64,000 nucleotides of DNA from Steroidobacteraceae bacterium (GTDB taxonomy: Bacteria > Pseudomonadota > Gammaproteobacteria > Steroidobacterales > Steroidobacteraceae): positions 612,366 to 676,365 of the forward strand of contig JASGLD010000001.1 of NCBI GenBank assembly GCA_049840395.1, written 5' to 3'. The notes under the pieces are model-generated. The model was not told where the DNA came from. It was given only the letters and a program-made list of their open reading frames with translations, and did no database searches. Each line of letters starts with the position of its first letter. The stretch's first letter is position 1. Position numbers and translations under genes: made by a program. Below, in pieces: positions 1,654 to 60,389 of this stretch.

Positions 1654-5083
<3,430 letters not shown>

Positions 5084-5173: not shown

Positions 5174-6898
5174 ATGCAGGTAATCTTGCGATTGGCTTGG
5201 TCATGCGTGTGCATGCTGATAGTGCTGTTTGCACTGTGGCTGGCGACGCCGCATATGACGGCGCAGCAGCAGTACGTCGATGGTCGTCGTGAAGCCGTAC
5301 AGTTGCCCTGGCATTTGGCCGTACCAGCCATCGGCAATCGACTCATCGTCGATCTGCAGGTGAATCGATTGACGCCTGGTCTCTGGCAGATCATCCCCGA
5401 CGACGAACTCAAAGCATTGCGCATCAACGGTCAAGAGGTGCCGCTATCCGCAGTGGGTGGTGGCCTGACCGATTGGAACAAGGGCTTTCAATTTGATTTG
5501 TCGCCCTGGCTAAAGCCCGGCAGCAATCAACTTGAATTTTCGCTGGACAATCATGGCGGCACCGGCGGGCTGATGCTGCGGCCGCATTTAAGTTTCTGGC
5601 ATTGGCTCATTATCGGCGGCAGTTTTATTCCGTGGCTATGGCTGTTGTCGCGCTGGTTAGGCTTGGGCCGTGCGCAGTTTCTGCTGTTGGCGTTGGCTTT
5701 GATTCCGCTGTGCATTTATTGGTCGGCCACACCCTGGGATGTGCGCACTCATGATGTGGTTGCCGATGGCGGGCATCTCGACTACATCCGCTATATCGCC
5801 GTCGAGCATGCACTGCCGCAGCCGAATGCCGGTTGGACCTTCTATCACCCACCTTTGTATTACTTGAGCGGTGCGGCGGTATATGCGGCAGCGATGCAGC
5901 TCAGCCTGTCCGTGTCACAGGTGTTGCAGGCTTATTCGCTGTTTCTCTGGCTGACATTTTTATGTGCCGGCGCAGCTTGTCTGCAATTGTTATTGCGCGG
6001 TAAGTCTCTGGCTTTGTTGGCCGCGACCTTGGCGCTGGCGACCTGGCCCAGCGGCATCATTCACGGCATCCGCATCGGTAACGACTTGGCGTTGTATGCG
6101 ATGGCTGGATTGGCAACCTGGCATCTGCTGCGTTGGTGGCGAACCAATCATCGCGCCAATTTGCTGTGGATGGCCGGTTTCACCGCTTTAGCCTTCCTCT
6201 GTAAGAGCAACGCCATCGTATTGTTGGCGGCGGTCGTGCTGCTGTTTGCTGCACGTACTGAACATCGCTGCCTGCGCTTGCGTCCGGTGCGAGCCAGCGA
6301 TGGCGTGTGGATGCTGGTCATCATGTTGATGGGCGTGGCACTTGGCTTGTCCACCAAGCTGTACTATCACTGGCAGGGCGATCTACCTAACTGGCTGGTG
6401 GGCAATGCCAATCAGTTAAACGACCGCTTGCGCGTGCCCGTGACGCTACAGAACTTGTTATTGCCGGATGTGAAAACTTTTTTGACGCATCCCTGGCTGG
6501 ATGCATGGGATGACGGCACAGGGCGTGGGCGTTATTGGAATTATCTGTTGCGTTCGTCGCTGTCGGGTGAATTCAAGTTCGCCGGTATTGGCGCGGAACG
6601 TATTGCTTATCTCTGGGGCGGGTTGCTGCTGGCATTGCTGGTGTTGCCCTTGCGCTCGCTGCGAGGTCTCACGATAGGCCATTGCTGGCGCAATCTTCCG
6701 TTATTGATCCTGGCTGGAGTATGGCTGGCCAGCTTGATGGCTTTGCGCATCAAGGTGCCTTATTCGTGCAGTAACGATTTCCGTTATGTTTTGCCGGTGC
6801 TAATACCGTTTCTGGTGTGGTGCGCGCGGTCCAGGTCATCGCAGGCGTTGTTGCTGGTGATGAGTTGCAGTTCGATATGGTTTTTTATGTCGATGTAG
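5174..6898 (+). CDS. Polytopic inner-membrane protein (possible GT-C/ArnT-like glycosyltransferase); function uncertain
   Basis: 574 aa with an N-terminal signal/TM, a ~130-aa periplasmic-like segment and more than 10 hydrophobic helices rich in W/L. No diagnostic motif recognised. Confidence 0.6.
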   Translation: MQVILRLAWSCVCMLIVLFALWLATPHMTAQQQYVDGRREAVQLPWHLAVPAIGNRLIVDLQVNRLTPGLWQIIPDDELKALRINGQEVPLSAVGGGLTDWNKGFQFDLSPWLKPGSNQLEFSLDNHGGTGGLMLRPHLSFWHWLIIGGSFIPWLWLLSRWLGLGRAQFLLLALALIPLCIYWSATPWDVRTHDVVADGGHLDYIRYIAVEHALPQPNAGWTFYHPPLYYLSGAAVYAAAMQLSLSVSQVLQAYSLFLWLTFLCAGAACLQLLLRGKSLALLAATLALATWPSGIIHGIRIGNDLALYAMAGLATWHLLRWWRTNHRANLLWMAGFTALAFLCKSNAIVLLAAVVLLFAARTEHRCLRLRPVRASDGVWMLVIMLMGVALGLSTKLYYHWQGDLPNWLVGNANQLNDRLRVPVTLQNLLLPDVKTFLTHPWLDAWDDGTGRGRYWNYLLRSSLSGEFKFAGIGAERIAYLWGGLLLALLVLPLRSLRGLTIGHCWRNLPLLILAGVWLASLMALRIKVPYSCSNDFRYVLPVLIPFLVWCARSRSSQALLLVMSCSSIWFFMSM

Positions 6899-6912
6899 TG
6901 TGTTGTAAGGTC

Positions 6913-7095
6913 GCCTAACAAATTGAGCGACACACTGGTAAAGCTTGCCGTCATTGGATGGCCAGATGTGTCTCCGGGACCGCCATGAATCCATCCATGG
7001 AGGCTGCGGCTCGGCTCCTGCCTCGCACGCTCCCTGCGACACATCTGGCCATCCAATGACAGCTGACACGGTATGCCGCGCTCAATTTGTTAGGC
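6913..7095. repeat. 183-bp imperfect palindrome bounded by integron-type core sites GCCTAAC ... GTTAGGC (solo attC-like element or MITE)
   Basis: Left arm GCCTAACAAATTGAGCG at 6913- pairs perfectly with CGCTCAATTTGTTAGGC ending at 7095. An inner 23-nt block GTCATTGGATGGCCAGATGTGTC is also inverted. Confidence 0.55.
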
Positions 7096-7266
7096 GATCC
7101 ATATGACTTGTGCGTCACTACCACTGCTTCTGGATGGTATGTAGTCTCCGGATAGGTAGTTGCCTTGGTTGCCGGTTGGATTTGCTGGATGTTAATTAAG
7201 TCTTGCCGCGAGCCGCCGATATACGCCGCGACCGTAGGTATTTCGTACTGAAGCCAGGTAATAAAA

Positions 7267-7812
7267 ATGAAAGGTTTGGTATTCACAGAGCTGGTCGAGT
7301 TTGTCGAACAAAGCTGCGGCATGGAAGTCGCCGACCGCATGATTTCCGAAAGCAATCTGCCTTCCGGGGGCGTGTACACCGCGGTGGGCACTTACGATCA
7401 CAAGGAAATCATCGAGCTGTTGACTACGCTGGTGAAAATCACCGGTCAGCCGCCCAATGTATTGCTCAAGGCTTTCGGCGGTCATTTGCACGGCCGGTTT
7501 GTGGCGGCCTATCCGGATTTCTTCACCCAGGCGGGCAACCTGTTCAACTTCCTGGAAAGCATCGAAGGACATATCCACGTCGAAGTACGCAAGTTATATC
7601 CGGATGCCGAGTTGCCTACTTTTAACTACGAACGTCCTGCGACGGACAAATTGGTGATGATCTATCGCTCCACCCGCGGCATGGCAGATCTGGCCGAGGG
7701 GTTGATTGAAGCGGCAGTCATGCATTTCAAAGAGCCGGTGCAGCTGTCGCGCGAAGATAAAGTTCCCGATGCGCTTTCGACCCGGTTCACCTTGCAACAG
7801 CTTAGAGCTTGA
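7267..7812 (+). CDS. hnoX: H-NOX (heme nitric oxide/oxygen-binding) sensor protein
   Basis: 181 aa. Proximal-His region [13 protein letters not shown] and the Y-x-S-x-R heme-propionate motif (IYRSTRG). Similar in pattern to Shewanella/Vibrio H-NOX. Its stop overlaps the kinase start. Confidence 0.8.
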
Positions 7813-9938
7813 CCATGTCCGAAGCGCTTGAGCAGCGCTGGCAGCGCGAACGCCAGGCACGCAAGGAAGCAGAGCGGCTATTGGAATTGAAGAGCCGCGA
7901 ACTGTACGACTCCAACCAGAAATTACAGAAGCTGGCCGAAACGCTGTCGACGGCGCGTGAAGCGGCGGTTGCGGCCAGCGAAGCCAAGAGCAACTTCCTG
8001 GCCAACATGAGTCATGAAATCCGCACGCCCATGAACGGCGTGGTAGGCCTGGTGGAGTTGTTGCTGGACACCAAGCTCAACGACACGCAGCGCGAATATG
8101 CCGAAGGCATTCACGCCAGCGCCGATGCCTTGCTCACCATCATCAACGACATTCTCGACTTCTCCAAGATCGAAGCCGGTCGGCTCGACATCGAAACCGT
8201 GGATCTGGATCTACGCGATGTGGTGGAGCAGGTCGGTCAATTGCTGGCCTTGCAAGCGGATCGCAAGGGATTGGAATTCATCATTCGCATGATGGGTGGC
8301 GTGCCGGAGTTTCTGCGTGGCGATCCGACGCGCCTGCGCCAGGTGTTGATCAATCTCACCGGCAACGCACTCAAGTTCACCCAACAAGGTGAAGTGGTGA
8401 TCACCGTCACCACCGTTGAAGATCATGCTGAGCAGGCCACGCTCAAATTCGAGATCTCGGATACCGGCATCGGTATTTCGCCGGCGCAAATCGAAAAACT
8501 ATTTCAGCCCTTCACGCAGGCCGATAGTTCCACTACACGCCGTTATGGCGGCACGGGATTGGGACTGTCCATTGTGCGTCGTTTGATCGAAATGATGGGA
8601 GGCACCATTGGTGTCGACAGCGAACCGGGCAAGGGTTCGTGCTTTTGGTTCACGCTCAGTTTCGACAAGCGCGAAGCGCCGCCGCGTTTCGATCTGACGG
8701 TCGACAATGCCTACAAGCACTTGGTGCTGGTGGTGGACGATAACGCCACCAACCTGATGGTGATTACGGGGCAGCTGGCGGGCTTCGGCTATCGCACGGT
8801 AGCGGCTTCTACACCGCAGGAAGGTCTGGAGTATTTGCGCCGTGCGGCGCGCAGCGGCAAGCCGGTGGCGCTGGCCGTGCTGGATTTTCAGATGCCGGAT
8901 ATGGACGGCGATGGACTGGCTGCTTGCATCAAGGCCGATCCGGAGATTGCCGATACGCCGCTGGTGTTGCTGACCTCAATCACACGCCGTACCAATCGCG
9001 CCATGCTGCTGCAGAAGGGCTATGCCGGTTACCTGGTCAAGCCGGTTAAACAAAACGATTTACGCGATTGCGTCGCGATGGCGTTGAACCCGCAGGCCGC
9101 CAACTGGCACGCCAATACCAATCGACTGGTGACGCGCGAAACCGCTGCTTCAGTACGTCGTCGCGAGCAGGGCCATATCCTGGTGGCTGAGGACAACGCG
9201 GTGAATCAGCGCGTGGTGCAAGTGGTACTGGAAAAACTGGGTTATCGCGTCGACATCGTGCCCGATGGTCGTGCCTGTGTGCAGGCCTGCCAGGCCAAGC
9301 GTTATGACGCGGTGCTGATGGATTGTCAGATGCCCGAGATGGATGGCTTCGAAGCCACACGCATCATTCGTACGGCCGAAACTGCCGAGTTTCACTTGCC
9401 CATCATCGCGGTCACGGCCAATGCCTTGATCGGCGATCGCGAGCGCTGTGTTGCCGCGGGCATGGATGATTACTTGACCAAGCCCATAGATCGCGACGCG
9501 CTGCGTGTCTGTCTTGAACGCTTTGTGCATCACGGCGGCACCGTGACGCTCAAGAATCTGGTGTTGCCGCAAGTCGATCCGGGCACGCCGGTGTTCGATG
9601 TCGCAAGAATGCAGGCCGTCTGTCAGGGCGATCGCGAATTCGAAGAGGAGCTGATTCTGACGTTCAAGGCGGCGGCCACTCAGCAGCTGGAAGCCTTGCA
9701 GGACTGCGCCATCAATCAGGATTGGAGTGGTATTGCGCGTCATGCACATATGATCAAGGGCGCCGCAGCGAATATCGGTGGTGTGGCGCTGGCCGAATGT
9801 GTGCAGCAGTTGGAGGCGGTACTCAAAGAACATGCCCATGAGCGAGTGGGCATGATGACGCTGCATCTCGAAGAACAGGCGCAGCGACTATTGTCGGCGC
9901 TCGATGAGCATCTGCTTGGTGTGAAGAAAGTTGGATAA
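7809..9938 (+). CDS. Hybrid sensor histidine kinase (HisKA-HATPase-REC-REC-HPt), H-NOX-associated (HnoK-like)
   Basis: H-box [11 protein letters not shown]; N, G1 (DTGIGI) and G2 (GGTGLGLS) boxes; two receiver domains (DD...D, K motifs); C-terminal HPt ([14 protein letters not shown]). Overlaps the H-NOX gene by 4 bp. Confidence 0.88.
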
Positions 9939-9950
9939 AAGCAGTAGTTA

Positions 9951-10117
9951 AGGCTGCCCCCACCCTAACCCTCGGCAACCGCTCCCTGCGTTGCTCTACC
10001 TCCTGCATCCATGCAGTCGTCCCCCGCAAGCGAGGGAGGGGATTAGATTCCTCTCCTTATTGGCGGGGACTCGATTCCCTCCCCTGCGCAGCGGGGGAGG
10101 GTTAGGGTGGGGGCAGC
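9951..10117. repeat. MITE-like composite REP element (GGGTGGGGGC family), copy 1
   Basis: Terminal inverted repeats GGCTGCCCCCACCCTAACCCTC ... GAGGGTTAGGGTGGGGGCAGCC, with nested inner palindromes CCCCGC...GCGGGG. Confidence 0.7.
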
Positions 10118-10292
10118 CTTGTAAGTGGGTTATTTCCGTTAGCGCCGAGTTCATTGAAGAACTCTGCTTTCTCAGGTAGGAATTACCTTGAGAACACCCT
10201 ACTGAAAACCAGCGCCACAAATAACAAAACGCCGGTCATGAGACCGGCGTTTCGCAGTTGCCTAAGGTGGCGCTCAGCCGATTGGCTGGAGA

Positions 10293-14205: not shown

Positions 14206-14210
14206 GTGAC

Positions 14211-14285
14211 GTAGGTTGGGCTGAGTCCGCGAAGCCCAACGTTGGGGACGTTTCAATATTTGTTGGGCAGGACAGCCCAACCTAC
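14211..14285. repeat. REP-like palindrome (GTAGGTTGGGCTG...CAGCCCAACCTAC)
   Basis: A 13-nt inverted repeat flanks a ~45-bp spacer directly after the trpS stop. It is a likely terminator/REP. Confidence 0.6.
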
Positions 14286-14303
14286 GAGATCTGACGAAAA
14301 CGA

Positions 14304-21610: not shown

Positions 21611-21643
21611 AGGTCATTCCTGATCTTTTCATTTCGCGTTCTT

Positions 21644-21670
21644 GTAGGTCGGGTTTCAACCCGACCTACA
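21644..21670. repeat. REP hairpin (TGTAGGTCGGG...CCCGACCTACA family)
   Basis: Perfect inverted repeat TGTAGGTCGGGTTT-CAA-CCCGACCTACA. Confidence 0.65.
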
Positions 21671-21831
21671 AGAAGATTTCCTAACCACCATGCAATGGCT
21701 CAATCCAATCGCCGTACAAAGCAATGGCGATAATTATGGACCGGCCTTTGCCGGAAAAGGAGGCGATGAAAATGAGCTTCATCGCCTCCGGATCCTCACA
21801 GAATCAAGCCCAGCTCAAAAGCCAGTGCCGT

Positions 21832-25932: not shown

Positions 25933-25992
25933 TGAGGGGCATTTCTCGCTACATGCTATTGGAGATCTGTTGAGCCAAAAAACCATTTCCTT

Positions 25993-26031
25993 GTAGGTCG
26001 GGTAGCGCTGAAGACAGCTAACCCGACCTAC
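25993..26031. repeat. REP hairpin (TGTAGGTCGGG family)
   Basis: TGTAGGTCGGGTAGCGCTGAAGACAGCTAACCCGACCTACA. Confidence 0.6.
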
Positions 26032-26141
26032 AAGAGAAGCATCTCACACTTCCTTTGCGGCACTCTGTTTTGATGTCGGGACGAGAGTATGGGTAGTGAC
26101 CGTCGAGCATCACCTCGATCCACTCTCTATAATGCTCGCCC

Positions 26142-28089: not shown

Positions 28090-28178
28090 CGTCATCCTCG
28101 CGAAGGCGGGGATCCAGCAATTAAAGCGTCGCAACGCGACACATCTATAACTGGATGCTCGCCTTCGCGAGCATGACG
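28090..28178. repeat. ~90-bp TIR palindromic element (MITE/REP-like), copy 1
   Basis: CGTCATCCTCGCGAAGGCGGGGATCCAG...CTGGATGCTCGCCTTCGCGAGCATGACG. A second copy lies at 39620-39707. Confidence 0.7.
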
Positions 28179-30243: not shown

Positions 30244-30314
30244 TCGATCCCGATGTAGGGCGTACTCATGAGTGCGCCATCCGAAAACACGTGATTGAAA
30301 CCGCCGCGCCTTTT

Positions 30315-30372
30315 TGTAGGTCGGGTTTTACACCCGACTCTTAAAAGAAGTCGGGTATAAAACCCGACCTAC
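30315..30372. repeat. REP hairpin (TGTAGGTCGGG family)
   Basis: TGTAGGTCGGGTTTTACACCCGACTCTTAAAAGAAGTCGGGTATAAAACCCGACCTACA. Confidence 0.65.
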
Positions 30373-30680
30373 AACGATCACAAACCACGGCACCAATTCC
30401 TTGATGGCGAATCATCCACGACTTGGATGATTTCGTATTCGTCATCCTCCTCGCCATCCAACAAATATTTTCACAAGAGTATTGACTCCAATAAAAACAG
30501 GCATAACATGCGCGCCCCTATGTTTACTCAAATACACAAACCAACTCTGTCGCAGCAGCTTTATAGCTGCGTGCACATCGCGAATGAAGCCATTCGCGGT
30601 GACGGGTTGGTGTTGTCTTATGAATTGCCAGCGCAATTCAACATGGATGCAAACAAGCTAAGTTAGCTTTCTACGCAAGT

Positions 30681-39619: not shown

Positions 39620-39707
39620 CGTCATCCCCGCGCAGGCGGGGATCCAGCAATAAAGCGTCGCAACGCGACACATCTACTACTGGATGCCCGCCTGCGCGGG
39701 CATGACG
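39620..39707. repeat. ~90-bp TIR palindromic element, copy 2 (compensatory base changes relative to copy 1)
   Basis: CGTCATCCCCGCGCAGGCGGGGATCCAG...CTGGATGCCCGCCTGCGCGGGCATGACG. Confidence 0.7.
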
Positions 39708-45166: not shown

Positions 45167-45530
45167 GGTGACCTCGTTGATAGGTGACTTTGGTTAGGCG
45201 TTCGTCTCGGTGACAGCCGGGGCGGACGCCGCTTTTTGTGGGCTGTTCGTGCCGCGTGAATTCCCAAAATGCCTGGAGCAATCCGTGTCGGCGGCATGAG
45301 CTAATCCCCACACAATCATGCCAGATAACTGTATGGATAACCAGCTAAAAAGCTTAAGTGAATTCAATTCATCGGCGCGCAACTTCAGTTAAAACTTTTC
45401 TACTTCTTTATCTGCAAACTGAAAATCAACATCACGCTCATCGGGTTGTGATGTTTGGGAGCGAATGACTACATAAATACCTACGGATCGACGGCCCGGT
45501 GATGCTGACCGCCGGGGTACACTCCATTCA

Positions 45531-46067
45531 CTACGTGCAACGACTAAACGCTAGTCTTAATGCCGTTCCAATTTCTCCATGTGTACTAATTGCAGGAATC
45601 TTCAAATGCTGCTCGTCTGCGATTCCTCTATTTGAATATTCTTCAAGCCCCTCATAATGACTTGGCACAATCATGATTATTCCATCAGCCTGGGAGATAC
45701 TGCAGCTTTTCATGTCCTTAAAAAGTGCACGACGTGAGCGATAACCATACTTCTTAACTTGTTGCTCAATGCATCTATTGTAGTGGTTACTTGATTCATC
45801 ACGTATCTCCTCCGCCTGCTTGAGACTAAAGAAACGAGTTTTGTCTAGGGCGGAAACAATTGCTTGGCCCAGTGCATCATCAAGGCTACTCACCGATATA
45901 TCGACCGGCGCATACAATGGATCAGGCTGCCCCATGCGATAGGCAGAGTATGTCCACACTGATATGAATTTACTACTTGACGTCGCTATCGCTTGTTTTT
46001 CTCTAATTGGATCGAGAACAGTCGGACTAAATAGCGACGTCACTTTTTTCCTAATTTTCTCTAGCAT
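45531..46067 (-). CDS. Cassette-like hypothetical protein (178 aa), low GC
   Basis: A palindromic GC-rich repeat (ACGGCCCGG...CCGCCGGGGT) lies immediately downstream of the stop. Confidence 0.6.
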   Translation of the reverse strand: MLEKIRKKVTSLFSPTVLDPIREKQAIATSSSKFISVWTYSAYRMGQPDPLYAPVDISVSSLDDALGQAIVSALDKTRFFSLKQAEEIRDESSNHYNRCIEQQVKKYGYRSRRALFKDMKSCSISQADGIIMIVPSHYEGLEEYSNRGIADEQHLKIPAISTHGEIGTALRLAFSRCT

Positions 46068-46218
46068 TGAACGATCCTATTAGTCAGGCCTCCAAGAGTT
46101 ATTATTAATATACACCGGCACACCCCGTACTGGGTTGCTCTTCAAACCACCGTCATAATTAACTGCCCGCTGAATTTGCTGAATCTGCACAGCAGGAGTT
46201 TCCGCACACGACAACGGT

Positions 46219-46362
46219 GCTGGGCCGTCGGATCGGGGATTCAAGAAGAATAATCGAGAACTGACTTCGTCTACTTCACAAGATGCTTTCATCTCGCGGC
46301 ACTTAAGCAACTGCAGTTGATATATATCAAATACCCCCGATCCCCCGGCCAGGCGATGTTCT
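46219..46362. repeat. ~150-bp cassette-array repeat, copy A (attC-like)
   Basis: Shares ~80% identity with copies at 46951-47098, 51041-51198 and 52803-52957. Ends CCGGCCAGGCGATGTT. Spurious ORF 46080..46487 is its translation. Confidence 0.65.
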
Positions 46363-46532
46363 GTTCTCCCCGAAGGGAGCGAGACGATTGGGTAAGGCGA
46401 GAGGCATAGAACCGGAAGTACAAAGCAGTGCGGCGGCAGCGCTTGATCATCGAGCGCACATTGACCGACAATGTTCTGAGCGACCATTAAAATCGCAGCT
46501 TAGTCGCAAGCAGCACTCAGGGAGATAAAGAG

Positions 46533-46946
46533 ATGCCTACGCTCGAGCCCGTCGAATTAAAAGCATTCATCCCGGCAAAGGACTACCAACTTTCAATCCA
46601 ATTTTACCAAGACCTCGGTTTTACCTTGTGCTGGGGAGGCGAAGGCGAGCTTGCCTACTTCCATTACGGCGACCATGGCAATCACGGCAAAGTCGGTTTC
46701 CTGCTGCAACGTTTCTACGTCAAAGAATTCGCAGAAAACCTCATGATGCATCTCATCGTCAAAGACCTCGATGCATGGTGGGCGAACGTGCAAGATAAAA
46801 ATTTGGCGGAGAAATACGGCGTGAGAACGGAGCCGCCTGAGCTTCGGCCATGGGATATGACGGACTGTGTTATTTGCGATCCGTCGGGGGTTTTATGGCG
46901 GATCGCACAGGAAGATCAAGGAGAGGATTGGCGCGAACCGGCTTAG
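46533..46946 (+). CDS. VOC family (glyoxalase/bleomycin-resistance-like) protein; the only plus-strand cassette gene
   Basis: 137 aa with a beta-alpha-beta-beta-beta VOC-like pattern. A common integron cassette function. Confidence 0.65.
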   Translation: MPTLEPVELKAFIPAKDYQLSIQFYQDLGFTLCWGGEGELAYFHYGDHGNHGKVGFLLQRFYVKEFAENLMMHLIVKDLDAWWANVQDKNLAEKYGVRTEPPELRPWDMTDCVICDPSGVLWRIAQEDQGEDWREPA

Positions 46947-46950
46947 CAGT

Positions 46951-47098
46951 CGACATCGCCGGGCCGGGGGAGGGGACTCAAGAAGAGTAATCGAGAACTG
47001 ACTTCGCTTACTTCACAAGATGCTTTCGTCTCGCGGCACTTAAGCAACTGCAGTTGATATATATAAAATACCCCGATCCTCCGGCCCGGCGATGTTCA
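46951..47098. repeat. ~150-bp cassette-array repeat, copy B (attC-like)
   Basis: Terminal inverted repeats CATCGCCGGGCCGG ... CCGGCCCGGCGATG. It lies directly below the stop of 47109..47573. Confidence 0.65.
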
Positions 47099-47108
47099 CG
47101 TAGCATGT

Positions 47109-47573
47109 TCATAGGAGCGTAAGCACTCCATCCTCTATCGAGAACGGAGCGTCATTGACCGCAGTGATCTTTCCGTCGAAAGACAAACAAAGTTTGTGTT
47201 CGGGGTCCCAGCGGGGATCGACATGAATGCTGGCAAAGAGGTCTGAGTGAACGTTAAGAATGGCTGCTCCGACTTCGGTCAGCACCTGGGACCTAGCTAG
47301 GCCAGAGGGAACCTTCCAAAATCGAAGCCAATCGTTGGTCTCGGCATGCTTGTAGTGCCCATATATCAAATCCCAAATTTGCGAACCGTGAGTCTCGGCG
47401 AATGCCGCAAGCCTAGCCGCTAGATTGACCATCGCTTCAGTCGGCAAGGTCTCAATGTCGCAGTAAAGCTCAACGGGTAAAATACCAATCTCCGTCTCGA
47501 CGGAGTGTTCCCAAAGCCAGGTATCAAAGAGAGCTGGCCCGCGAGGTTGCTTGTGAAATTCAGAGAGCCGCAT
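47109..47573 (-). CDS. Cassette-like hypothetical protein (154 aa)
   Basis: ORF immediately upstream (in gene orientation) of repeat copy B. Confidence 0.6.
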   Translation of the reverse strand: MRLSEFHKQPRGPALFDTWLWEHSVETEIGILPVELYCDIETLPTEAMVNLAARLAAFAETHGSQIWDLIYGHYKHAETNDWLRFWKVPSGLARSQVLTEVGAAILNVHSDLFASIHVDPRWDPEHKLCLSFDGKITAVNDAPFSIEDGVLTLL

Positions 47574-47693
47574 AGTTTGAGTGAGCCACAGAATGAGACG
47601 CCCAACGCTGCTGATAAGCCGACGCGAAAGAGCGTAGCGATTGAGCGGTCGAACGACCGGAGGGAGTGAACTTGATTGGCTGGTTAGGTGCCT

Positions 47694-47927
47694 TCATGAC
47701 TTGGAGAGCGCAATAAACCATTTTTCAGGGTGCTTCGGGCATAACAGTTGTCCAGCCTCATCTTTCTTTCCTTCGCGGACAAGTTGAACAACTTTGTGAG
47801 CTTCCAGATGCCTTGGAATCTCAGGAAGTGATTCATTACAACAAGCAGCCAGCACGACATCGCGCAGGCGATACCAATCAGTTGACGATAAATCCGTATC
47901 GTTGAAACCACTGCTCATAGCGGGCAC
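47694..47927 (-). CDS. Possible small cassette ORF (77 aa)
   Basis: Only ORF in the 47.6-48.1 kb gap. Weak support. Confidence 0.3.
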   Translation of the reverse strand: MPAMSSGFNDTDLSSTDWYRLRDVVLAACCNESLPEIPRHLEAHKVVQLVREGKKDEAGQLLCPKHPEKWFIALSKS

Positions 47928-48095
47928 CTAACGAATTAACTAACGGGCGCGCCGTCTTTCGGCGCGTCTGCGTTAAGTGATTTGTTAGTGCTCTTAGCTT
48001 TCATCAGTTTGAACCTCAATTTCAAGCTCGTCGTTTCTTCCGAGCTTCAATACGTAAGCGAACTTGCCAGAACCCAACAGAGGACAACGGTGCCG

Positions 48096-48160
48096 GGCCG
48101 TCGGATCGTAGGTGTCCTTGCGCGGACCGACGGCCCGGCACCGCTCACCCTGTGTCGGAG
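48096..48160. repeat. GC-rich palindrome (GTGCCGGGCCGTCGG...CCGACGGCCCGGCAC), attC-like
   Basis: A 15-nt inverted repeat directly downstream of the 48184..48615 stop. Related to the left end of repeat copy A. Confidence 0.5.
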
Positions 48161-48183
48161 CGATTTGCGGGCTGCAGCCATCA

Positions 48184-48615
48184 CTACTCAATGTAGAGAT
48201 GAGCAAGTAAATGACGCTTTTCCTTATCTGCAAGTACGTCGATGGATCCCCCGTTAGGTGCATCCTTGGGCTTACCTAGATAGTGCCACGCCACTTCGAA
48301 ATTTGGCCCCTTGTTTTCAGACATGGGGTGGTCATGGGCATGCTTGTAGTAGGGAGTTTCCTCCAATGTATATGGCTCACTCACCAGCAATTTTGGGAAA
48401 TCAGAAGGATCTATCTCGAACGCACAAGTTACCAATGTGTCTGTAAAGCCCAGTGACGCACAGTCAGCAGATGAGACCGACCATGGCACAGTATTCAGGT
48501 CAAAAAGATATCCGACTCCCATTCGCTCTTGCCACCAAGAAAATGTGAGGCCCAGTGCGAACAGTGTAAGTGTGGCGCCTAGCCAAAGCTTCCATCTCTT
48601 AAGCTGCTGTAGCAT
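48184..48615 (-). CDS. Cassette-like membrane-anchored hypothetical protein (143 aa)
   Basis: N-terminal TM (LWLGATLTLFALGLTFSWW). Confidence 0.6.
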   Translation of the reverse strand: MLQQLKRWKLWLGATLTLFALGLTFSWWQERMGVGYLFDLNTVPWSVSSADCASLGFTDTLVTCAFEIDPSDFPKLLVSEPYTLEETPYYKHAHDHPMSENKGPNFEVAWHYLGKPKDAPNGGSIDVLADKEKRHLLAHLYIE

Positions 48616-48627
48616 TTGTCTCTAGTT

Positions 48628-48695
48628 GCCTAACGCCGTGTATTAGACGACAAGTCGCGAGTCTGCGCCGGGCCGTCTCGAAGCGCTGGTTAGGT
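48628..48695. repeat. Canonical integron attC-like site (68 bp): GCCTAAC ... GTTAGGT
   Basis: Inverse core RYYYAAC (GCCTAAC) and core GTTRRRY (GTTAGGT) as inverted repeats. The core overlaps the TAA stop of 48690..49019 (ACCTAAC on the coding strand). Confidence 0.6.
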
Positions 48696-49019
48696 TGCTT
48701 TTGGTTGCGCATTAAAGAAGTGTACGAGATCAGCAGCGGTCTTGACCTTGCCATATAGCGGGTTCGCTTCCATCTTATCCATCGAGCGAGCTGTCCGTTG
48801 CGCAATCTCGGAGGCAATATCCATATCGAGATCTTCGCTGTCTATTGGCAAATCCTGGCCAAAGACATCCGATGCTCGGATTGGGATCTGATACTTCGAT
48901 CCTAAGTGCTCTTGTAGTTGCTCATAAACCGCGCGCACGACCCAGGTATCAACCGAGCGCTCATCGAATGAGCGAGCGAACTCACAAATGGACTCACCTT
49001 TTCTAGAAGCTGCAAGCAC
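48690..49019 (-). CDS. Cassette-like hypothetical protein (109 aa), possibly an ACP-like fold
   Basis: The acidic IDSEDLDMDI segment vaguely resembles a phosphopantetheine attachment region. Low confidence on function. Confidence 0.55.
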   Translation of the reverse strand: MLAASRKGESICEFARSFDERSVDTWVVRAVYEQLQEHLGSKYQIPIRASDVFGQDLPIDSEDLDMDIASEIAQRTARSMDKMEANPLYGKVKTAADLVHFFNAQPKAT

Positions 49020-49059
49020 GAACCCGCGACCCGGCGATGCTCATCCAAAACGCATTGCT

Positions 49060-49560
49060 CTACTCGCCGTACTCAAATGAGTGCAGAGCATGAAGCGCGC
49101 TAACCACGTGCGGCCCCCAATGAAGTCGAAACATTTCACGCCAACTGTACACAGCGGCCTCGACATGCCCAGCATCAAACAACCAGAGGCCTGACGAGAT
49201 GTCCGCGTAGATGTCTTGGAAGTCGTCGAACAGATCGCCACAACCTGGCTCCGTATCTGTATCGGGCAAGGCGGGTTCGCACAGAACCCAATAATACTGA
49301 AAAGGCAAAGCTGATAAATTCTGTGCTACCACTTGGCGCTGAACGTCAGTTGTACGAGGAGCCTCAGGAGACCGTTTGAATTCGACTTCCGGTAGGTAGA
49401 GCGCTGAGTTGTAAACAGAAGATAGATGACGAAGCGCTTCGACCTTGAATTGCTTCGGAGCTGCGCCATCGTGGTCCGTTTTGCACCACTTTACGAATTG
49501 TCGCGCATGCTTCTCAAACTGAGCTATTGCATCTGATTGAGTCATGATGCGTTCGAACAA
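49060..49560 (-). CDS. Cassette-like hypothetical protein (166 aa)
   Basis: Separated from the previous ORF by only 40 bp, which contains a repeat-end remnant (ACCCGGCGATG). Possibly a two-gene cassette. Confidence 0.6.
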   Translation of the reverse strand: MFERIMTQSDAIAQFEKHARQFVKWCKTDHDGAAPKQFKVEALRHLSSVYNSALYLPEVEFKRSPEAPRTTDVQRQVVAQNLSALPFQYYWVLCEPALPDTDTEPGCGDLFDDFQDIYADISSGLWLFDAGHVEAAVYSWREMFRLHWGPHVVSALHALHSFEYGE

Positions 49561-49617
49561 GTAACGAACGGACGTGGGTGTCCGGGCATGTTTATTACTG
49601 AGGACACTCGACGACTC

Positions 49618-50202
49618 CTAGAACAGGAATTCCTGTACGGCTAATGATGCGACAATTCGTCCGTTTACAGTCGCTGGCTCAAATCGCCATTGCTTCATGC
49701 TTTCGAGCGCCGCCGCAGTAAGCGCGGGCGAGGAAGTCTCGAGCACGACCTGATCACTTGCAACGCCGCTAGTCGTAATGATGTAGCCGATTACAACCTT
49801 ACCTGACTTAGGCATACCGTCAGCATCCAATTGCCGACCCGGCAAACTGCCCGCAAGAACTTTAGCTCTATTCATAATCGAATCGTTAAGAACGTCGGCA
49901 AAGATGTACTTGCACCCATAGGCTTTCTTAAGCGCTTGGTCCATTTGACTCGTTTCCGCCGTGGCACGATTGAATATCGTGCGCGCCAGCATCGACTCGG
50001 TGGATTCCTTTTTCGCACCGGACTTGCTGGGCGACTCACAGGCAGCATTAGCCGAAATACAGCAGGATAGTGCGGCAATTCCAGCAAAGACTCGTATCAT
50101 GATTTTCATGCAAATAGGCCTAACGTTCCCAGTAAGCTGAACAGTGTCAGGTCGTCGATCCGTATGTATGTATTTTAATGGCGAGGGTGAAGTACACCAC
50201 AT
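49618..50202 (-). CDS. Secreted TonB C-terminal-domain-like protein; probable true start at MKIMIRVFAGIAALSCC (~50109)
   Basis: Signal peptide. The C-terminal region resembles TonB_C (VVLETSSPALTAAALESMKQWRFEPATVNGRIV). Confidence 0.6.
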   Translation of the reverse strand: MWCTSPSPLKYIHTDRRPDTVQLTGNVRPICMKIMIRVFAGIAALSCCISANAACESPSKSGAKKESTESMLARTIFNRATAETSQMDQALKKAYGCKYIFADVLNDSIMNRAKVLAGSLPGRQLDADGMPKSGKVVIGYIITTSGVASDQVVLETSSPALTAAALESMKQWRFEPATVNGRIVASLAVQEFLF

Positions 50203-50279
50203 AAATACCTACGGATCGACGGCCCGGCATCGTTTCCCGCGGCATCATTTCCCGAATCGCCTCCAATTGCTTGTTAAGC
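50118..50279. repeat. attC-like site (162 bp): GCCTAAC ... GTTAAGC
   Basis: RYYYAAC and GTTRRRY cores at the two ends. GTTAAGC overlaps the TAA stop of 50274..51005. Internal ACGGATCGACGGCCCGG matches the 45470 repeat. Confidence 0.55.
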
Positions 50280-51005
50280 ATCCGCACTTTTTGGTCTCTT
50301 CCAAATGAGAAAATTGGCGTTGCTCGTGCTCCCCATCGCTTTGATTACGGCTTCGTCGTTCAATACATTGAAACGAGATTGAAGCTGCTCAAGGAGTTTG
50401 AATTTCACTGCCGCATCGTGCGGGATCAAGCAGCCTTTCTGGTTGCCATCCATGATTGCAAAGAACACATCCTCTGCATATGGGCCGTCATCTGTAGTAA
50501 TGATTCTGATCTCATCTACGTCATCCCAACGAATTCGCTCGTTTATCGAGCCTACCGTCCTCACAACACCCACATCATCGATTTCGATCGTTTCTGTTTC
50601 AGTCCCGGGTTCCGCCCCGAATCCGAACCTGGCGCGTCGCAGATAGGCAGCAGCTGGAAAGCCGAATGCGACAAGCGCAAGGATGGCATTGATCACAGAT
50701 GGGTTTGATCGGGATTCGGAAACCGCTACGCTATCAACGATTTCGGTGAACAGATACCACGCGGTGACAACAAGTACCGCGGACGCAAGGAAGCTGCCTA
50801 TTACCCTCTGAATACGACCGTGGACGAAACAGACGGCCGCGATACCAAGGCAAAAGGTGCCAAACAAGTAGTGACCGATCGGCCTATCCGCGCTCGGCGC
50901 GATGAGAATCATCACCATGCCGAACAAACCCGCGAAGAACGAGAGAATTAATCGAAGTGCAAGACCATTGCCGCCTCGTGTCGGCTGTGTTTCTTCGGGG
51001 ATCAT
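50274..51005 (-). CDS. Cassette-like membrane protein (243 aa; 4 TM plus a cytoplasmic domain)
   Basis: Hydrophobic N-terminal half and a soluble acidic C-terminal half. Confidence 0.6.
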   Translation of the reverse strand: MIPEETQPTRGGNGLALRLILSFFAGLFGMVMILIAPSADRPIGHYLFGTFCLGIAAVCFVHGRIQRVIGSFLASAVLVVTAWYLFTEIVDSVAVSESRSNPSVINAILALVAFGFPAAAYLRRARFGFGAEPGTETETIEIDDVGVVRTVGSINERIRWDDVDEIRIITTDDGPYAEDVFFAIMDGNQKGCLIPHDAAVKFKLLEQLQSRFNVLNDEAVIKAMGSTSNANFLIWKRPKSADA

Positions 51006-51040
51006 TGTGATATTGCTGGTAGATTGATTAGTGCGGAATC

Positions 51041-51198
51041 AGCATCGCCGGGCCGGAGGATCGGAGGATTCAAAAAGAACAATTGAGAACTGGCTTCGCC
51101 TGCTTCACAAGATGCTTTCGTCTCGCGGTACTTAAGAAACTGCAGTTGATATGTATCAATAGCCACGATTCACGGCCCGCTGCAACTGCTTGTTAGCC
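51041..51198. repeat. ~150-bp cassette-array repeat, copy C (attC-like), ending with GTTAGCC
   Basis: Aligned with copies A, B and D. GTTAGCC lies 19 bp before the GNAT stop. Confidence 0.6.
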
Positions 51199-51216
51199 GC
51201 TGGCATGTCGGTGATG

Positions 51217-51699
51217 CTAGCTCTCTGATGCAAAATGATCGAGCTCCGGCCCTGCGAGTCTGAAATACAGCTTGCCCGGATTCGTTTGGGCTCCGAGTTG
51301 ACGATAGAAGCTCAATGCTTCCAGGTTAGTTTCGTCGACGGTCCAGTCGAAGCGGCTACACGATTTGGAAACAGCATAGCGAGCTACGAAGTGCATCAAG
51401 GCCTTGCCAATACCTCCGCCGCGACAATCAGAGGCCACAAACAGCTCCTTCATGAAGAGCTGTCCGCGCTCCTTGGGTGCGGGATAAAGAATAGAGATTG
51501 AGGCCAAGCCGACTGCGCGTACACCGTCGAGCGCGATGACTAGGTGCACACCTGAGTGCTCACCCAGTATGTTCTTGATAAGGTTCTGTCTCACCTCGTG
51601 ACGTTCAGACGCATTCGGGCCGTTGTAATGAGCGCTCATGTCGAGCATGAGGTCTGTTACGGTTTCCAAGTATTCATGCGTGTAGAACTGAATGTGCAT
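51217..51699 (-). CDS. GNAT family N-acetyltransferase
   Basis: Acetyl-CoA binding motif (RGGGIGKALMHFV). Confidence 0.8.
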   Translation of the reverse strand: MHIQFYTHEYLETVTDLMLDMSAHYNGPNASERHEVRQNLIKNILGEHSGVHLVIALDGVRAVGLASISILYPAPKERGQLFMKELFVASDCRGGGIGKALMHFVARYAVSKSCSRFDWTVDETNLEALSFYRQLGAQTNPGKLYFRLAGPELDHFASES

Positions 51700-51934
51700 G
51701 ATTGGCGGCTAACTAGAAGTAGAGGCCGGTGATACGGGCCCTAAATGTCCCTTTACAAAGGTACTTATATCAGTGTTGTGCACCTTGGTTCTCCAGAATT
51801 CCTTGTCGAACAATCGGCTGCTGCTTTGTAGCTGAGCGTATCGAAAAAAGCAAAAGGGACTTGTGAGTGGTCGCTCCTGGCCGGTATCTGCACTGCAATG
51901 GAGTCGGGCCATCGGATCATGGGTGTTTGGCGAT

Positions 51935-52010
51935 TGATGTATCAAGCCCAGTCAACATCTTGCCGCAGCGCATAGCTGCTATATTCCAAATGCACCACCC
52001 GGCGACGTTC
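51935..52010. other. Remnant of the 3' end of a phyH-like gene, duplicated from 54812-54885
   Basis: ~75 bp are ~90% identical to the 3' end plus ~20 bp downstream of the PhyH gene. The reverse complement encodes ...RVVHLEYSSYALRQDVDWA*. Confidence 0.6.
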
Positions 52011-52027
52011 ATGCGAGGAGATTGACC

Positions 52028-52774
52028 TCACCGCGCCAGTAAGCCCCGCAGGACCATGTAGCAGCCGAGCAAGAGCATGGCGAAGAGAAACCACCTTTTA
52101 AACGCCACGGGATCGATTCGTCCACGAGCGCGCTGCCCGGCAAACATGCCGATCAGTGCTGGGATCACTGCCAGTAGCGAGGCGAGCAAAGAAGTGGAGG
52201 AGTAGCTGCTGCGCACGCTCAGGCCAATGGCGAGCGCGATGGTGGCTACGGTGGCGAACAACCCAAAGGCTTGAACGAGTTCGTCCTTGCCCAAATCAAG
52301 AGCGCTCAGGTAAGGCACGGCCGGTACGAGGAATACACCTGTTGCCCCGCTAATGACGCCGGTGACGGCGCCGACGACGGGCGAAAGCACTGACTCTGAC
52401 TGCGGTGGCACAGTGAACTTGGGCAGGAATAGCGCCAGCAGCGCGTAGAGAGCGAGTACCGCTCCCAGTGCGACCGATGGCCAGCGGGAGGAGCCCGATG
52501 TCAGGAACTGAATGCCGAAAGCCGTTCCCACGCACACCAGCACCACCATGCTCGCGAATCGTTTTGTCACACTGACCGTCGCAGCCCCCACGGCGAACTG
52601 CCAGATGTTGGTAACCAGCGATGGCACCACGAGTAATGCAGCGGCTTGAACAGGCGCCATGACAACGCCGAGCGCGCCCATCGCAACCGTTGGCAGCCCC
52701 ATGCCAACTACACCCTTCACCCAGCCGGCAACGAAAAAGACAAGCGCCACAAAGGCAGCGGATTCGAGTGGCAC
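52028..52774 (-). CDS. TauE/SafE family sulfite exporter-like membrane protein
   Basis: 248 aa with 7-8 TM helices and Gly-rich repeats typical of TauE/SafE (DUF81). Confidence 0.75.
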   Translation of the reverse strand: MPLESAAFVALVFFVAGWVKGVVGMGLPTVAMGALGVVMAPVQAAALLVVPSLVTNIWQFAVGAATVSVTKRFASMVVLVCVGTAFGIQFLTSGSSRWPSVALGAVLALYALLALFLPKFTVPPQSESVLSPVVGAVTGVISGATGVFLVPAVPYLSALDLGKDELVQAFGLFATVATIALAIGLSVRSSYSSTSLLASLLAVIPALIGMFAGQRARGRIDPVAFKRWFLFAMLLLGCYMVLRGLLAR

Positions 52775-52802
52775 GTGTTGTAACTCCTAACGGGTGATGC
52801 AG

Positions 52803-52957
52803 TCGACATCGCCGGGCTGAGGGATCGGGGGACTCAAGAAGAATAATCGAGAATGGGGTTCGCCTGCTTTACTAGAAACTCTCGTCTCGCGGCACTTAAG
52901 CAACTGCAGTTGATATGTATCAATAGCCACGACCCCGCGCCCCCGGCGATGTTGGAC
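52803..52957. repeat. ~150-bp cassette-array repeat, copy D (attC-like), ending with the core GTTGGAC
   Basis: GTCGACATCGCCGGGCTG ... CCCCCGGCGATGTTGGAC. Spurious ORF 52787..53074 is its translation. Confidence 0.6.
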
Positions 52958-53120
52958 AAAATAAGTGTTCCCTTTAAGCACATTTGCAGGCCTTGAGCGT
53001 ATCCAATGCAAGATGGTTATGGGGGTCATATGGTCACTTGCTGTGGTCTCTCTGTTGTACCTAATTGTACCCATCGGGCGGCTTATCGGTTTTCTTTTCC
53101 GACAAGACGCCTGCTCGTGA

Positions 53121-54729: not shown

Positions 54730-54820
54730 TGACAGGGTGAGTGGTGTTAATCAGTCTTAACTAGGTTGCTGTCTTTAGGATCAAGCAGAGTGCGAGTGAT
54801 GGTGATCAATGATTAATGCA

Positions 54821-55495
54821 TCAAGCCCAGTCAACATTTGGCGGCAGCGCATAGCTGCTGTATTCCAAATGCACCACCCGACGATGCGCCTTGCTTTGTG
54901 ACTTGCTCGATGAGTGCAGCACGTGCGGGCGCATGATCATGGCGTCTCCGGCAGCGACTACGCAGGCAACGGGCTTGGAATTTTTTGCTAGTTGTTCGAT
55001 TTCCCTTTGAGCCAGTATTCCCTGGCGATGCGATCCTGGAATGATGTTGAGGCAGCCGCTTTTTTCGTCTGCATCGTCGATATGCAGTCTGATGGTCACC
55101 ATTTTATCGAGTACGGCGCGTGGCGGTTGTACATGATGCACGCCATCCTTGAATGACCAGGGTCCCCAACCCGACATTTCGCATCTTTGATTCAGTGTGA
55201 CGGTTCTATCTTGATGCCAGGCCACAAACCAGTTTGCTTCCGGTGTCTTGTCGAAAAATAAAGCGCGTACCAGACGAGGCGGTGACTGAAGTAGTTCGTT
55301 GGCAATATTCAGCATGTCTGGAGAACTGGCCAGTTGGGCAACGCTGCTGAACCTCTTTTCAAGATTGCGGATGCCATGCCGGCGAAGTTGCTCGCAGCCT
55401 AGACTGATCTCTGACTTGACGGCTTCAATGCTGTCGCGCGAGAGAATGCCTTTGCGAATCTCCGCGCCATCGGTATGAAAGTTGAGCGAGGTCAA
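54821..55495 (-). CDS. Phytanoyl-CoA dioxygenase (PhyH) family protein
   Basis: 224 aa; I did not pick out the PhyH-type 2-His-1-carboxylate iron motif, so the call rests on overall similarity. The C-terminus ...HLEYSSYALPPNVDWA is duplicated as a remnant at 51935-52010. Confidence 0.65.
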   Translation of the reverse strand: MTSLNFHTDGAEIRKGILSRDSIEAVKSEISLGCEQLRRHGIRNLEKRFSSVAQLASSPDMLNIANELLQSPPRLVRALFFDKTPEANWFVAWHQDRTVTLNQRCEMSGWGPWSFKDGVHHVQPPRAVLDKMVTIRLHIDDADEKSGCLNIIPGSHRQGILAQREIEQLAKNSKPVACVVAAGDAMIMRPHVLHSSSKSQSKAHRRVVHLEYSSYALPPNVDWA

Positions 55496-57666: not shown

Positions 57667-57703
57667 CGCTCTACTCTTGAAGTTAACTGACGCGATCTTC
57701 TAT

Positions 57704-57904
57704 TCCCTCCCCCGTTCCACGGGGGAGGGCAGGGTGGGGGCGTCTGACGACTGCGCCCAGCATCAAATCAAGTAATTAAATCTTTGCCGCCTCTTGATAG
57801 ATGGTTACGGGGTCATGATGAGATAAATGCTGTTTGCTCAGGTTGAGATTTGAGCTTTTTGTTTTGCCCCCACCCTAACCCTCCCCCGTCGAACGGGGGA
57901 GGGG
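57704..57904. repeat. MITE-like composite REP element (GGGTGGGGGC family), copy 2
   Basis: TIRs CCCTCCCCCGTTCCACGGGGGAGGGCAGGGTGGGGGC ... GCCCCCACCCTAACCCTCCCCCGTCGAACGGGGGAGGG. The interior is shared with copy 3. Confidence 0.7.
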
Positions 57905-57928
57905 ATGTTGGAGTTGGATTTGCTTGTT

Positions 57929-57990
57929 TTGTAGGTCGGGTTTTAACCCGACTCTTACGTTTTAAGAGTCGGGTTAAAACCCGACCTACA
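57929..57990. repeat. REP hairpin (TGTAGGTCGGG family), ~28-bp perfect stem
   Basis: TGTAGGTCGGGTTTTAACCCGACTCTTACGTTTTAAGAGTCGGGTTAAAACCCGACCTACA. Confidence 0.65.
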
Positions 57991-58011
57991 AAGAGCAGCT
58001 GAACGCAGCTC

Positions 58012-60086: not shown

Positions 60087-60163
60087 TTAAGTCCCAGCAA
60101 ATCGTTTTACTCCTGAGGTTCATGCACGCTTGCAAGATTGATCACTGCTTAGTGGAATGATTC

Positions 60164-60352
60164 CCTCCCCCGTTCGACGGGGGAGGGCCAGGGTGGGGGC
60201 ATCTGACTATTATGCCCGGCATTGAATACCCAACCCTACGCTGCGTTTGGGTCGGTGGCTATGAAATTGGGATGAGATGAATAGAGTTTGCTCAGGTTGA
60301 GTTTGAGCTTTTTTGCCCCCACCCTAACCCTCCCCCGTCGAACGGGGGAGGG
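60164..60352. repeat. MITE-like composite REP element (GGGTGGGGGC family), copy 3
   Basis: Same TIRs and shared ~50-bp interior (TTTGCTCAGGTTGAG.TTTGAGCTTTTT) as copy 2, in direct orientation 2.3 kb away. Confidence 0.7.
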
Positions 60353-60389
60353 AATAGAAGAGAGGGGTGAGGGGCCGTGGTGCTAAGGC

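Follow-up and report, generated by a model that had tools for sequence, protein, structure and literature searches.

A nested palindrome between a membrane-protein gene and an hnoX operon is probably an extragenic repeat-type element and not an integron attC site

The window (the whole 64-kb stretch of DNA analysed here) carries a cassette array and, far from it, a large palindrome whose ends look like those of an attC site. Is this palindrome, which lies between a membrane-protein gene and an hnoX operon, a lone integron recombination site, a mobile palindromic repeat or a regulatory element of the operon? All three had been raised in a sequence-only reading of the window, the second as a MITE with attC-like termini. 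The likeness to attC is easily seen: the element is an imperfect palindrome with RYYYAAC...GTTRRRY ends and a 12-nt resemblance to the R''-spacer part of attC, it follows a stop codon, and a cassette array is found elsewhere in the same window.

Structure and genomic setting of the palindrome

The element is a nested palindrome of 187 nt (6911-7097), with 183 nt between the outer ends of its two terminal heptamers. It had been placed at 6913-7095; a palindrome is indeed present there, but these coordinates mark only the heptamers and fall short of the full element. The left outer arm, TCGCCTAACAAATTGAGCG (6911-6929, 19 nt), contains GCCTAAC at 6913-6919 and is 100% complementary to the right outer arm, CGCTCAATTTGTTAGGCGA (7079-7097), its reverse complement, which contains GTTAGGC at 7089-7095. 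The arms had been described as 18 nt long and perfectly complementary. The complementarity stands, and the length is corrected to 19 nt, the strings quoted at the time being 17 nt.

Next to the outer arms are two non-complementary stretches, 17 nt on the left (6930-6946) and 15 nt on the right (7064-7078), recognised from the sequence, the folds and the alignment of the two halves; the left one forms an internal loop in the folds and aligns with mismatches and indels. Further inward are two inner arms of 36 nt each (6947-6982 and 7028-7063), which are 89% complementary. They include the internal 23-nt inverted block that had been pointed out before, as the exact 23-mer GTCATTGGATGGCCAGATGTGTC at 6950-6972 and its partner at 7038-7060. 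The 45-nt central region (6983-7027) forms small local hairpins, e.g., CCATG...CATGG. When the left half was globally aligned with the reverse complement of the right half, 72 of 102 columns were identical, and the differences clustered in the two unpaired stretches and the centre. An assembly artefact was considered and rejected by inference, since a fold-back chimera would not give halves that carry unpaired stretches of unequal length (17 and 15 nt) and several mismatches.

As single-stranded DNA, the + strand of the element folds with -69.1 kcal/mol (z = -11.7) and the - strand with -70.6 kcal/mol (z = -11.3), and none of 200 shuffles folded as well in either case. The RNA fold of the + strand reaches -121.4 kcal/mol (z = -10.5). 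The suggestion that the element could form a large cruciform or hairpin thus agrees with what was found, namely a strong palindrome with a very stable fold (z about -11, for DNA and RNA).

The upstream gene (5174-6898, + strand) encodes an integral membrane protein of 574 aa, GT39/PMT_2-like, with a weak PMT_2 Pfam match and homologues named glycosyltransferase family 39; it is preceded by ligA (2999-5083). Downstream are hnoX (7267-7812, + strand; Pfam HNOB, 2.7e-40) and a gene for a hybrid histidine kinase (7809-9938, + strand; Pfam HisKA, HATPase_c, Response_reg, and Hpt). The genes on both sides of the element are co-directional and the element is intergenic. It begins 12 nt past the stop codon of the membrane-protein gene and ends 169 nt before the hnoX ATG (7267), which confirms its placement between these two genes in the earlier reading. 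A 53-aa ORF within the palindrome had no Pfam match.

The two flanking proteins match MGC3980166.1 and MGC3980167.1 from a Steroidobacteraceae MAG at 100%; these are consecutive accessions with no annotation between them. The next best homologues of the two proteins are only 52% and 65% identical, and there are therefore no close relatives with which the locus could be compared. A synteny look-up of the membrane protein gave nearest homologues of at most 52% identity, and these have other neighbour genes.

Other palindromes in the window and the search for further copies

At least four further palindromic repeat families are present in the window, all of them intergenic. REP-like hairpins with arms GTAGGTCGGGTT...AACCCGACCTAC occur at five intergenic sites (14210-14286, 21639-21674, 25990-26034, 30314-30374, and 57928-57992). 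An 88-nt palindrome, CGTCATCCCCGCG (CGTCATCCCCGCGCAGGCGGGGATCCAGCAAT...), is found in two copies (28090-28178 and 39620-39707), each after a gene end. A 141-nt repeat is present in four copies in the cassette array. Elements of roughly 200 nt, CCCTCCCCCG...GGGTGGGGGCA, are present in three copies; the roughly 200-nt elements at 57702-57906 and 60160-60355 are composed of inverted copies of a 42-nt unit, ATTCCCTCCCCCGTTCGACGGGGGAGGGYYAGGGTGGGGGCA. This unit consists of a small hairpin plus a tail and is also seen at the right end of 9950-10120.

A variant of the ATTCCCTCCCCCGTTCGACGGGGGAGGGYYAGGGTGGGGGCA family, at 9950-10120, is a palindrome of 171 nt whose 24-nt inverted repeat, AAGGCTGCCCCCACCCTAACCCTC, is perfect. 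It starts 11 nt past the stop codon of the kinase gene and folds as DNA with -60 kcal/mol (z = -9). The hnoX-kinase operon is thus bracketed by two mutually unrelated palindromes, each directly after a stop codon, a placement that seems to be usual for palindromes in this genome and not peculiar to integrons. The 171-nt palindrome also contains CCCTAAC/GTTAGGG. With the other palindromes of the window, the element upstream of hnoX shares only 11-mers, CGCTCCCTGCG with 9950-10120 and GCGACACATCT with the 88-nt family; homology was not accepted on the basis of these short local matches, which gave z of 2.8-3.7 in shuffle tests.

Within the window, the arm TCGCCTAACAAATTGAGCG has only its own two occurrences at up to 3 mismatches, the 23-mer GTCATTGGATGGCCAGATGTGTC is found only at 6950-6972 and 7038-7060, and neither blastn-short nor nhmmer detected a second copy of the element in the 64 kb. 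Outside the window, a scan of 185,579 species-representative genomes with the 17-nt arm yielded 17 single matches, in unrelated taxa, and a scan of JGI metagenomes yielded 31; the partner arm and the inner block were present in none of them. These single-arm matches were treated as chance. The inner 23-mer had 0 matches in JGI metagenomes and 0 in viral contigs. An 18-mer end had 2 single matches in viral contigs, one of them on a contig that was also matched among the genomes (L008) and the metagenomes (L029), and plasmids gave no BLASTN match to the element. A plain repeat had been expected to show many identical copies and no attC-model score. As described below, the score is indeed marginal and non-significant, whereas many identical copies were not seen in the window or in the genome, metagenome, viral and plasmid collections searched, which do not include the source genome.

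These searches bear most directly on the idea that the palindrome is one member of a multi-copy MITE- or BIME-like repeat, with its other copies beyond the window, spread by a transposase or by a REP-associated tyrosine transposase (RAYT). The palindrome has what such a repeat would show: its terminal inverted repeats are perfect, its size is usual for a MITE and it lies between genes. The genome is demonstrably rich in repeated palindromes. Speaking against it, neither a search at 3 mismatches nor nhmmer gave a further copy in the window, although the window samples just 64 kb of a multi-megabase genome, and only one member of a family with tens of copies might well fall within it. The wider collections do not help this explanation either, as there is no two-armed match in the genomes or JGI metagenomes and no real match in viral contigs or plasmids. 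In addition, there is no target-site duplication, the flanks TGTTGTAAGG and TCCATATGAC sharing no direct repeat, and no Y1 or other transposase and no RAYT was found among the window ORFs tested. On balance, we regard membership in such a dispersed family as unlikely.

Comparison with integron attC sites

The R box of attC sites has the form RYYYAAC/GTTRRRY, with complementary conserved AAC/GTT triplets (PMC5027507). The heptamers GCCTAAC (6913-6919) and GTTAGGC (7089-7095) pair at 7/7 positions and fit this R''/R' consensus, and the first 12 nt of the element, GCCTAACAAATT, resemble GYCTAACAAnTC, the R''-spacer consensus of real sites. The sequence-only reading was also right that the heptamer is shared with the cassette array: GCCTAAC is found at 48628 and 50118 on the + strand and at 43596 and 45193 on the - strand. 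The heptamer is mildly enriched in the window (8 found vs 4.1 expected; 4 of 100 shuffles reach 8), and the RYYYAAC class as a whole has 117 occurrences. Ends of the type RYYYAAC...GTTRRRY arise without integron involvement, as exemplified by the REP hairpin at 14234-14268, which is bounded by GCCCAAC...GTTGGGC. By our estimate, a 19-nt arm fits the R box by chance in about 1% of cases, which becomes appreciable over the dozen or more palindromes in the window, and the fit of both ends is left as a coincidence.

Apart from the R box, attC sites are characterized by a central spacer of 5-6 nt, unpaired on each arm, between the R and L boxes; by two or three extrahelical bases in the L'' arm, through which the two strands differ; and by a terminal structure that varies and a total length of 57-141 bp (PMC5027507). 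In the palindrome, the AAATT that follows AAC pairs fully with the AATTT that precedes GTT, and the spacer is thus absent; GAGCG/CGCTC is also fully paired in the terminal stem. Extrahelical bases are likewise absent, as the 19-bp terminal stem runs without bulge or interruption. The length of 183-187 nt is beyond the range of 57-141 (PMC5027507).

The array in the same window offers a more direct comparison. Its attC sites fold weakly, with bulges, at -11 to -18 kcal/mol vs -69 for the palindrome, which makes the latter roughly four to six times more stable, and local alignment revealed no similarity between the palindrome and the array sites. The palindrome stands isolated, about 38-40 kb from the array, and the unit downstream of it is a 2.7-kb two-gene operon and not a promoterless cassette. 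No integrase domain was found in the ORFs tested in the window.

For a quantitative comparison, a covariance model was built from 14 attC sites delimited in class 1 integron cassette arrays from plasmids (estX, psp, aadA2, cmlA1, aadA1, qacL, VIM-66, aac(6')-31, IMP-1, aac(6')-IIa, dfrA5, aadB, dfrA16, and CARB-2). A MAFFT alignment of the full-length sites was discarded because it misaligned the right arms by 4 columns. In their common register, the 14 sites have R'' of 7 nt, a spacer of 5, L'' of 3, one extrahelical base and L'' of 5 on the left, and L' of 5, L' of 3, a spacer of 5-6 and R' of 7 on the right. A model of this core only (R1, 46 positions) was dropped since it over-penalised long centres; it missed the known long sites IMP-1, dfrA5, dfrA16, and CARB-2 as well as most array sites. 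The IntegronFinder attC model combines an R-spacer-L consensus with a variable terminal structure (PMC4889954). Model R2, in which the R-spacer-L consensus is kept and the centre has variable length, mirrors that design.

With R2, the 14 training sites scored 24-57 bits on one strand, and two attC sites outside the training set scored 23.4 and 18.7 bits, again on one strand. Three sites of the array, at 47600-47689 (23.3 bits), 47926-47990 (16.4 bits), and 48628-48695 (15.1 bits), were recognised on the minus strand; as members of a cassette array in this very window, they gave an independent positive control. For real attC sites, the range is 15-57 bits on the scoring strand, with no more than 15 bits on the opposite one. 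The next match was a false positive, the REP hairpin at 14234-14268 (12.4 bits, minus strand). The palindrome (6913-7095) scored 10.7 bits, identically on both strands, with E about 3.4 in 64 kb; these were the fifth and sixth R2 matches in the window, one per strand, each a full-length alignment. The alignment deletes 3/5 and 4/6 spacer positions as well as the extrahelical position.

R2 is purpose-built and is not IntegronFinder's model, and it missed the two longest R-box-bounded palindromes of the array (~160 nt). It is therefore weak for long sites, and part of the low score of the palindrome is due to length. The failures in the spacer, the extrahelical bases and the strand symmetry do not depend on the R2 score. 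Of six testable features that define attC, the palindrome possesses only the R box and lacks the other five.

In our judgement, the palindrome is therefore most likely no recombination site of an integron. An attC left by integron activity, solo or degenerate, with a folded strand that recombines, or once did, at the GTT of the R box, could account for the R-box ends, for the likeness of GCCTAACAAATT to GYCTAACAAnTC and for the full-length 10.7-bit alignment, and the three model-positive sites of the array are only about 40 kb away. This explanation has to accommodate an E value of about 3.4 in 64 kb, which would be far worse genome-wide, a score under that of a REP hairpin and its strand identity. 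The size (183-187 nt) is unlike that of known attC sites (57-141), and the stability (-69 kcal/mol) is unlike that of the array sites (-11 to -18), even though terminal structures in chromosomal attC sites may be long and branched (PMC5027507). The deletions of spacer and extrahelical positions on which the alignment depends are a further difficulty, and so is the fully paired spacer: such pairing is reported to make recombination less efficient, and a perfect hairpin has been proposed to favor the reverse reaction (PMC5027507). No integrase was found in the tested ORFs. Single attC sites predicted in isolation are about as frequent as false positives (PMC4889954) and are ignored by default in IntegronFinder 2 (PMC9024848). 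The lone attC of the sequence-only reading is accordingly not upheld, either by covariance-model scoring (10.7 bits on both strands, E about 3.4, under the 12.4 bits of the REP hairpin) or by structure (fully paired spacer, no extrahelical bases, excess length, no array-site similarity), and we give it a low probability. Were the palindrome recombinogenic, it would be an exception to the structural rules of attC.

Comparison with other hnoX operons

The hnoX-kinase pair also occurs in two distant relatives, L059 and L060, which come from one JGI metagenome, have 62-63% H-NOX identity and are the nearest that could be retrieved. Neither L059 nor L060 has a large inverted repeat upstream of hnoX; one of the two operons has a simple 16-nt hairpin after its upstream gene. 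The palindrome may hence be specific to its lineage, as judged from two hnoX operons without it, a comparison that is weak at such distance. L059 (3773-4000) and L060 (3699-4000) have a common upstream region of ~190 nt despite different upstream genes. The window does not have this region, which may serve the hnoX clade of L059 and L060 as a conserved promoter or leader.

The position of the palindrome, 169 nt upstream of hnoX, and its very stable RNA structure invite the explanation that it is a cis-regulatory element of hnoX, either a structured leader or processing site of a read-through transcript or a dyad-symmetric site for protein binding or cruciform formation that controls hnoX transcription. 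A pattern scan found no sigma-70-like promoter at or beside the element nor between it and hnoX, as would fit read-through from the upstream gene. No intrinsic terminator turned up in the scan at or beside the element either, and no T-run follows the hairpin. The element abuts the upstream stop codon and not the hnoX start, however, and Rfam, searched up to E = 10, returned no match to it. After the kinase gene, the corresponding spot is taken by an unrelated palindrome, and the element is not conserved in the hnoX-kinase operons of L059 and L060, which are alike in their upstream regions and differ there from the window. A dedicated regulatory role for hnoX therefore appears rather improbable. 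An influence of the hairpin on read-through into the hnoX operon, if there is one, would amount to a regulatory peculiarity of this locus and lineage.

We consider it very improbable that the palindrome is a symmetric, spacer-less attC-like hairpin, recombined on either strand by an integrase encoded outside the window, which together with 9950-10120 would mark the hnoX-kinase operon as a large orientation-free cassette. If that were true, integron-type single-strand recombination could move whole signalling operons.

Nature and possible role of the element

With its anatomy and stability, its position, its uniqueness in the sequence searched, its absence from two distant hnoX operons, the absence of attC features and the abundance of other extragenic palindromes around it, the element is probably an extragenic palindrome of the general REP/BIME/MITE kind, non-coding, restricted to its lineage and, in the available sequence, an orphan with one copy, and not an attC site. 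Against this reading, the searches gave no second copy, and REP and MITE elements are defined by belonging to a repeat family. The missing target-site duplication, the lack of similarity to the other palindromic families of the window, and the hairpin without a T-run or intrinsic terminator also count against it, and the attC-like ends have to be left to coincidence. The palindrome may have originated by insertion or by local palindrome formation.

REP elements are units of 20-40 nt, present in tens to hundreds of copies and often having a GTAG head. Like REP and BIME elements, the palindrome is intergenic and non-coding and forms a stable hairpin right after a stop codon, and REP-like families are found in the same window. 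A hairpin at the mRNA 3' end is also the role that would be expected of such an element. It differs from them in being a single 187-nt nested palindrome with no second copy detected and with no RAYT gene among the window ORFs tested. For MITEs such as Correia/NEMIS, ERIC/IRU, and YPAL, the defining traits are a high copy number and, in most cases, a target-site duplication. The palindrome resembles them in its size class of 100-200 nt, its terminal inverted repeats, its intergenic position and its ability to form one long RNA hairpin. In contrast to these MITEs, it was not found in many copies, and no target-site duplication was seen.

Any effect of the palindrome would most plausibly be exerted at the RNA level, as a 3' hairpin or as a substrate of RNase III. 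The element occupies the 3' flank of the membrane-protein gene, 12 nt past the stop codon, and transcription reading into it would produce an RNA hairpin, roughly 190 nt long and with a fold of about -121 kcal/mol, that should stop 3'-to-5' exonucleases. Its perfect duplexes of 19 and 23 bp would also be available to RNase III. Either the block of exonucleases or a cut by RNase III would then separate the upstream transcript from the hnoX-histidine kinase operon.

For the annotation of integrons, it follows that RYYYAAC/GTTRRRY heptamers at the ends of a palindrome are insufficient to call an attC site. This caution is strongest in genomes that contain many extragenic palindromes, as a candidate of this type can score below a REP hairpin there. 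Beyond annotation hygiene, the palindrome matters little and adds a single new example to a well-known kind of feature.

The cassette array

The cassette array spans about 45200-53000 on the minus strand. No integrase was present in the ORFs tested, and the array is therefore CALIN-like within the window. Its cassette genes include CdiI immunity, glyoxalase, GNAT, TonB_C, and TauE genes, and its GC content is 47-52% vs about 56-60% in the neighbouring sequence.

Only three sites in the array were recognised by the class-1-trained model R2. A 141-nt repeat, ACATCGCCGGGCCGGGGGA..., is present in four copies (46214-46354, 46951-47091, 51043-51183, and 52807-52947), which are 71-82% identical, lie at cassette boundaries and have their own inverted repeat of 19-25 nt. 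These repeats were not recognised by R2, and several are without an AAC or GTT triplet. They could represent an unusual class of long attC sites or a MITE that targets the array.

A 74-nt direct repeat with 91% identity links 51932-52005 with 54811-54884; the copy within the array duplicates the 3' end of a PhyH-family gene (54821-55495).
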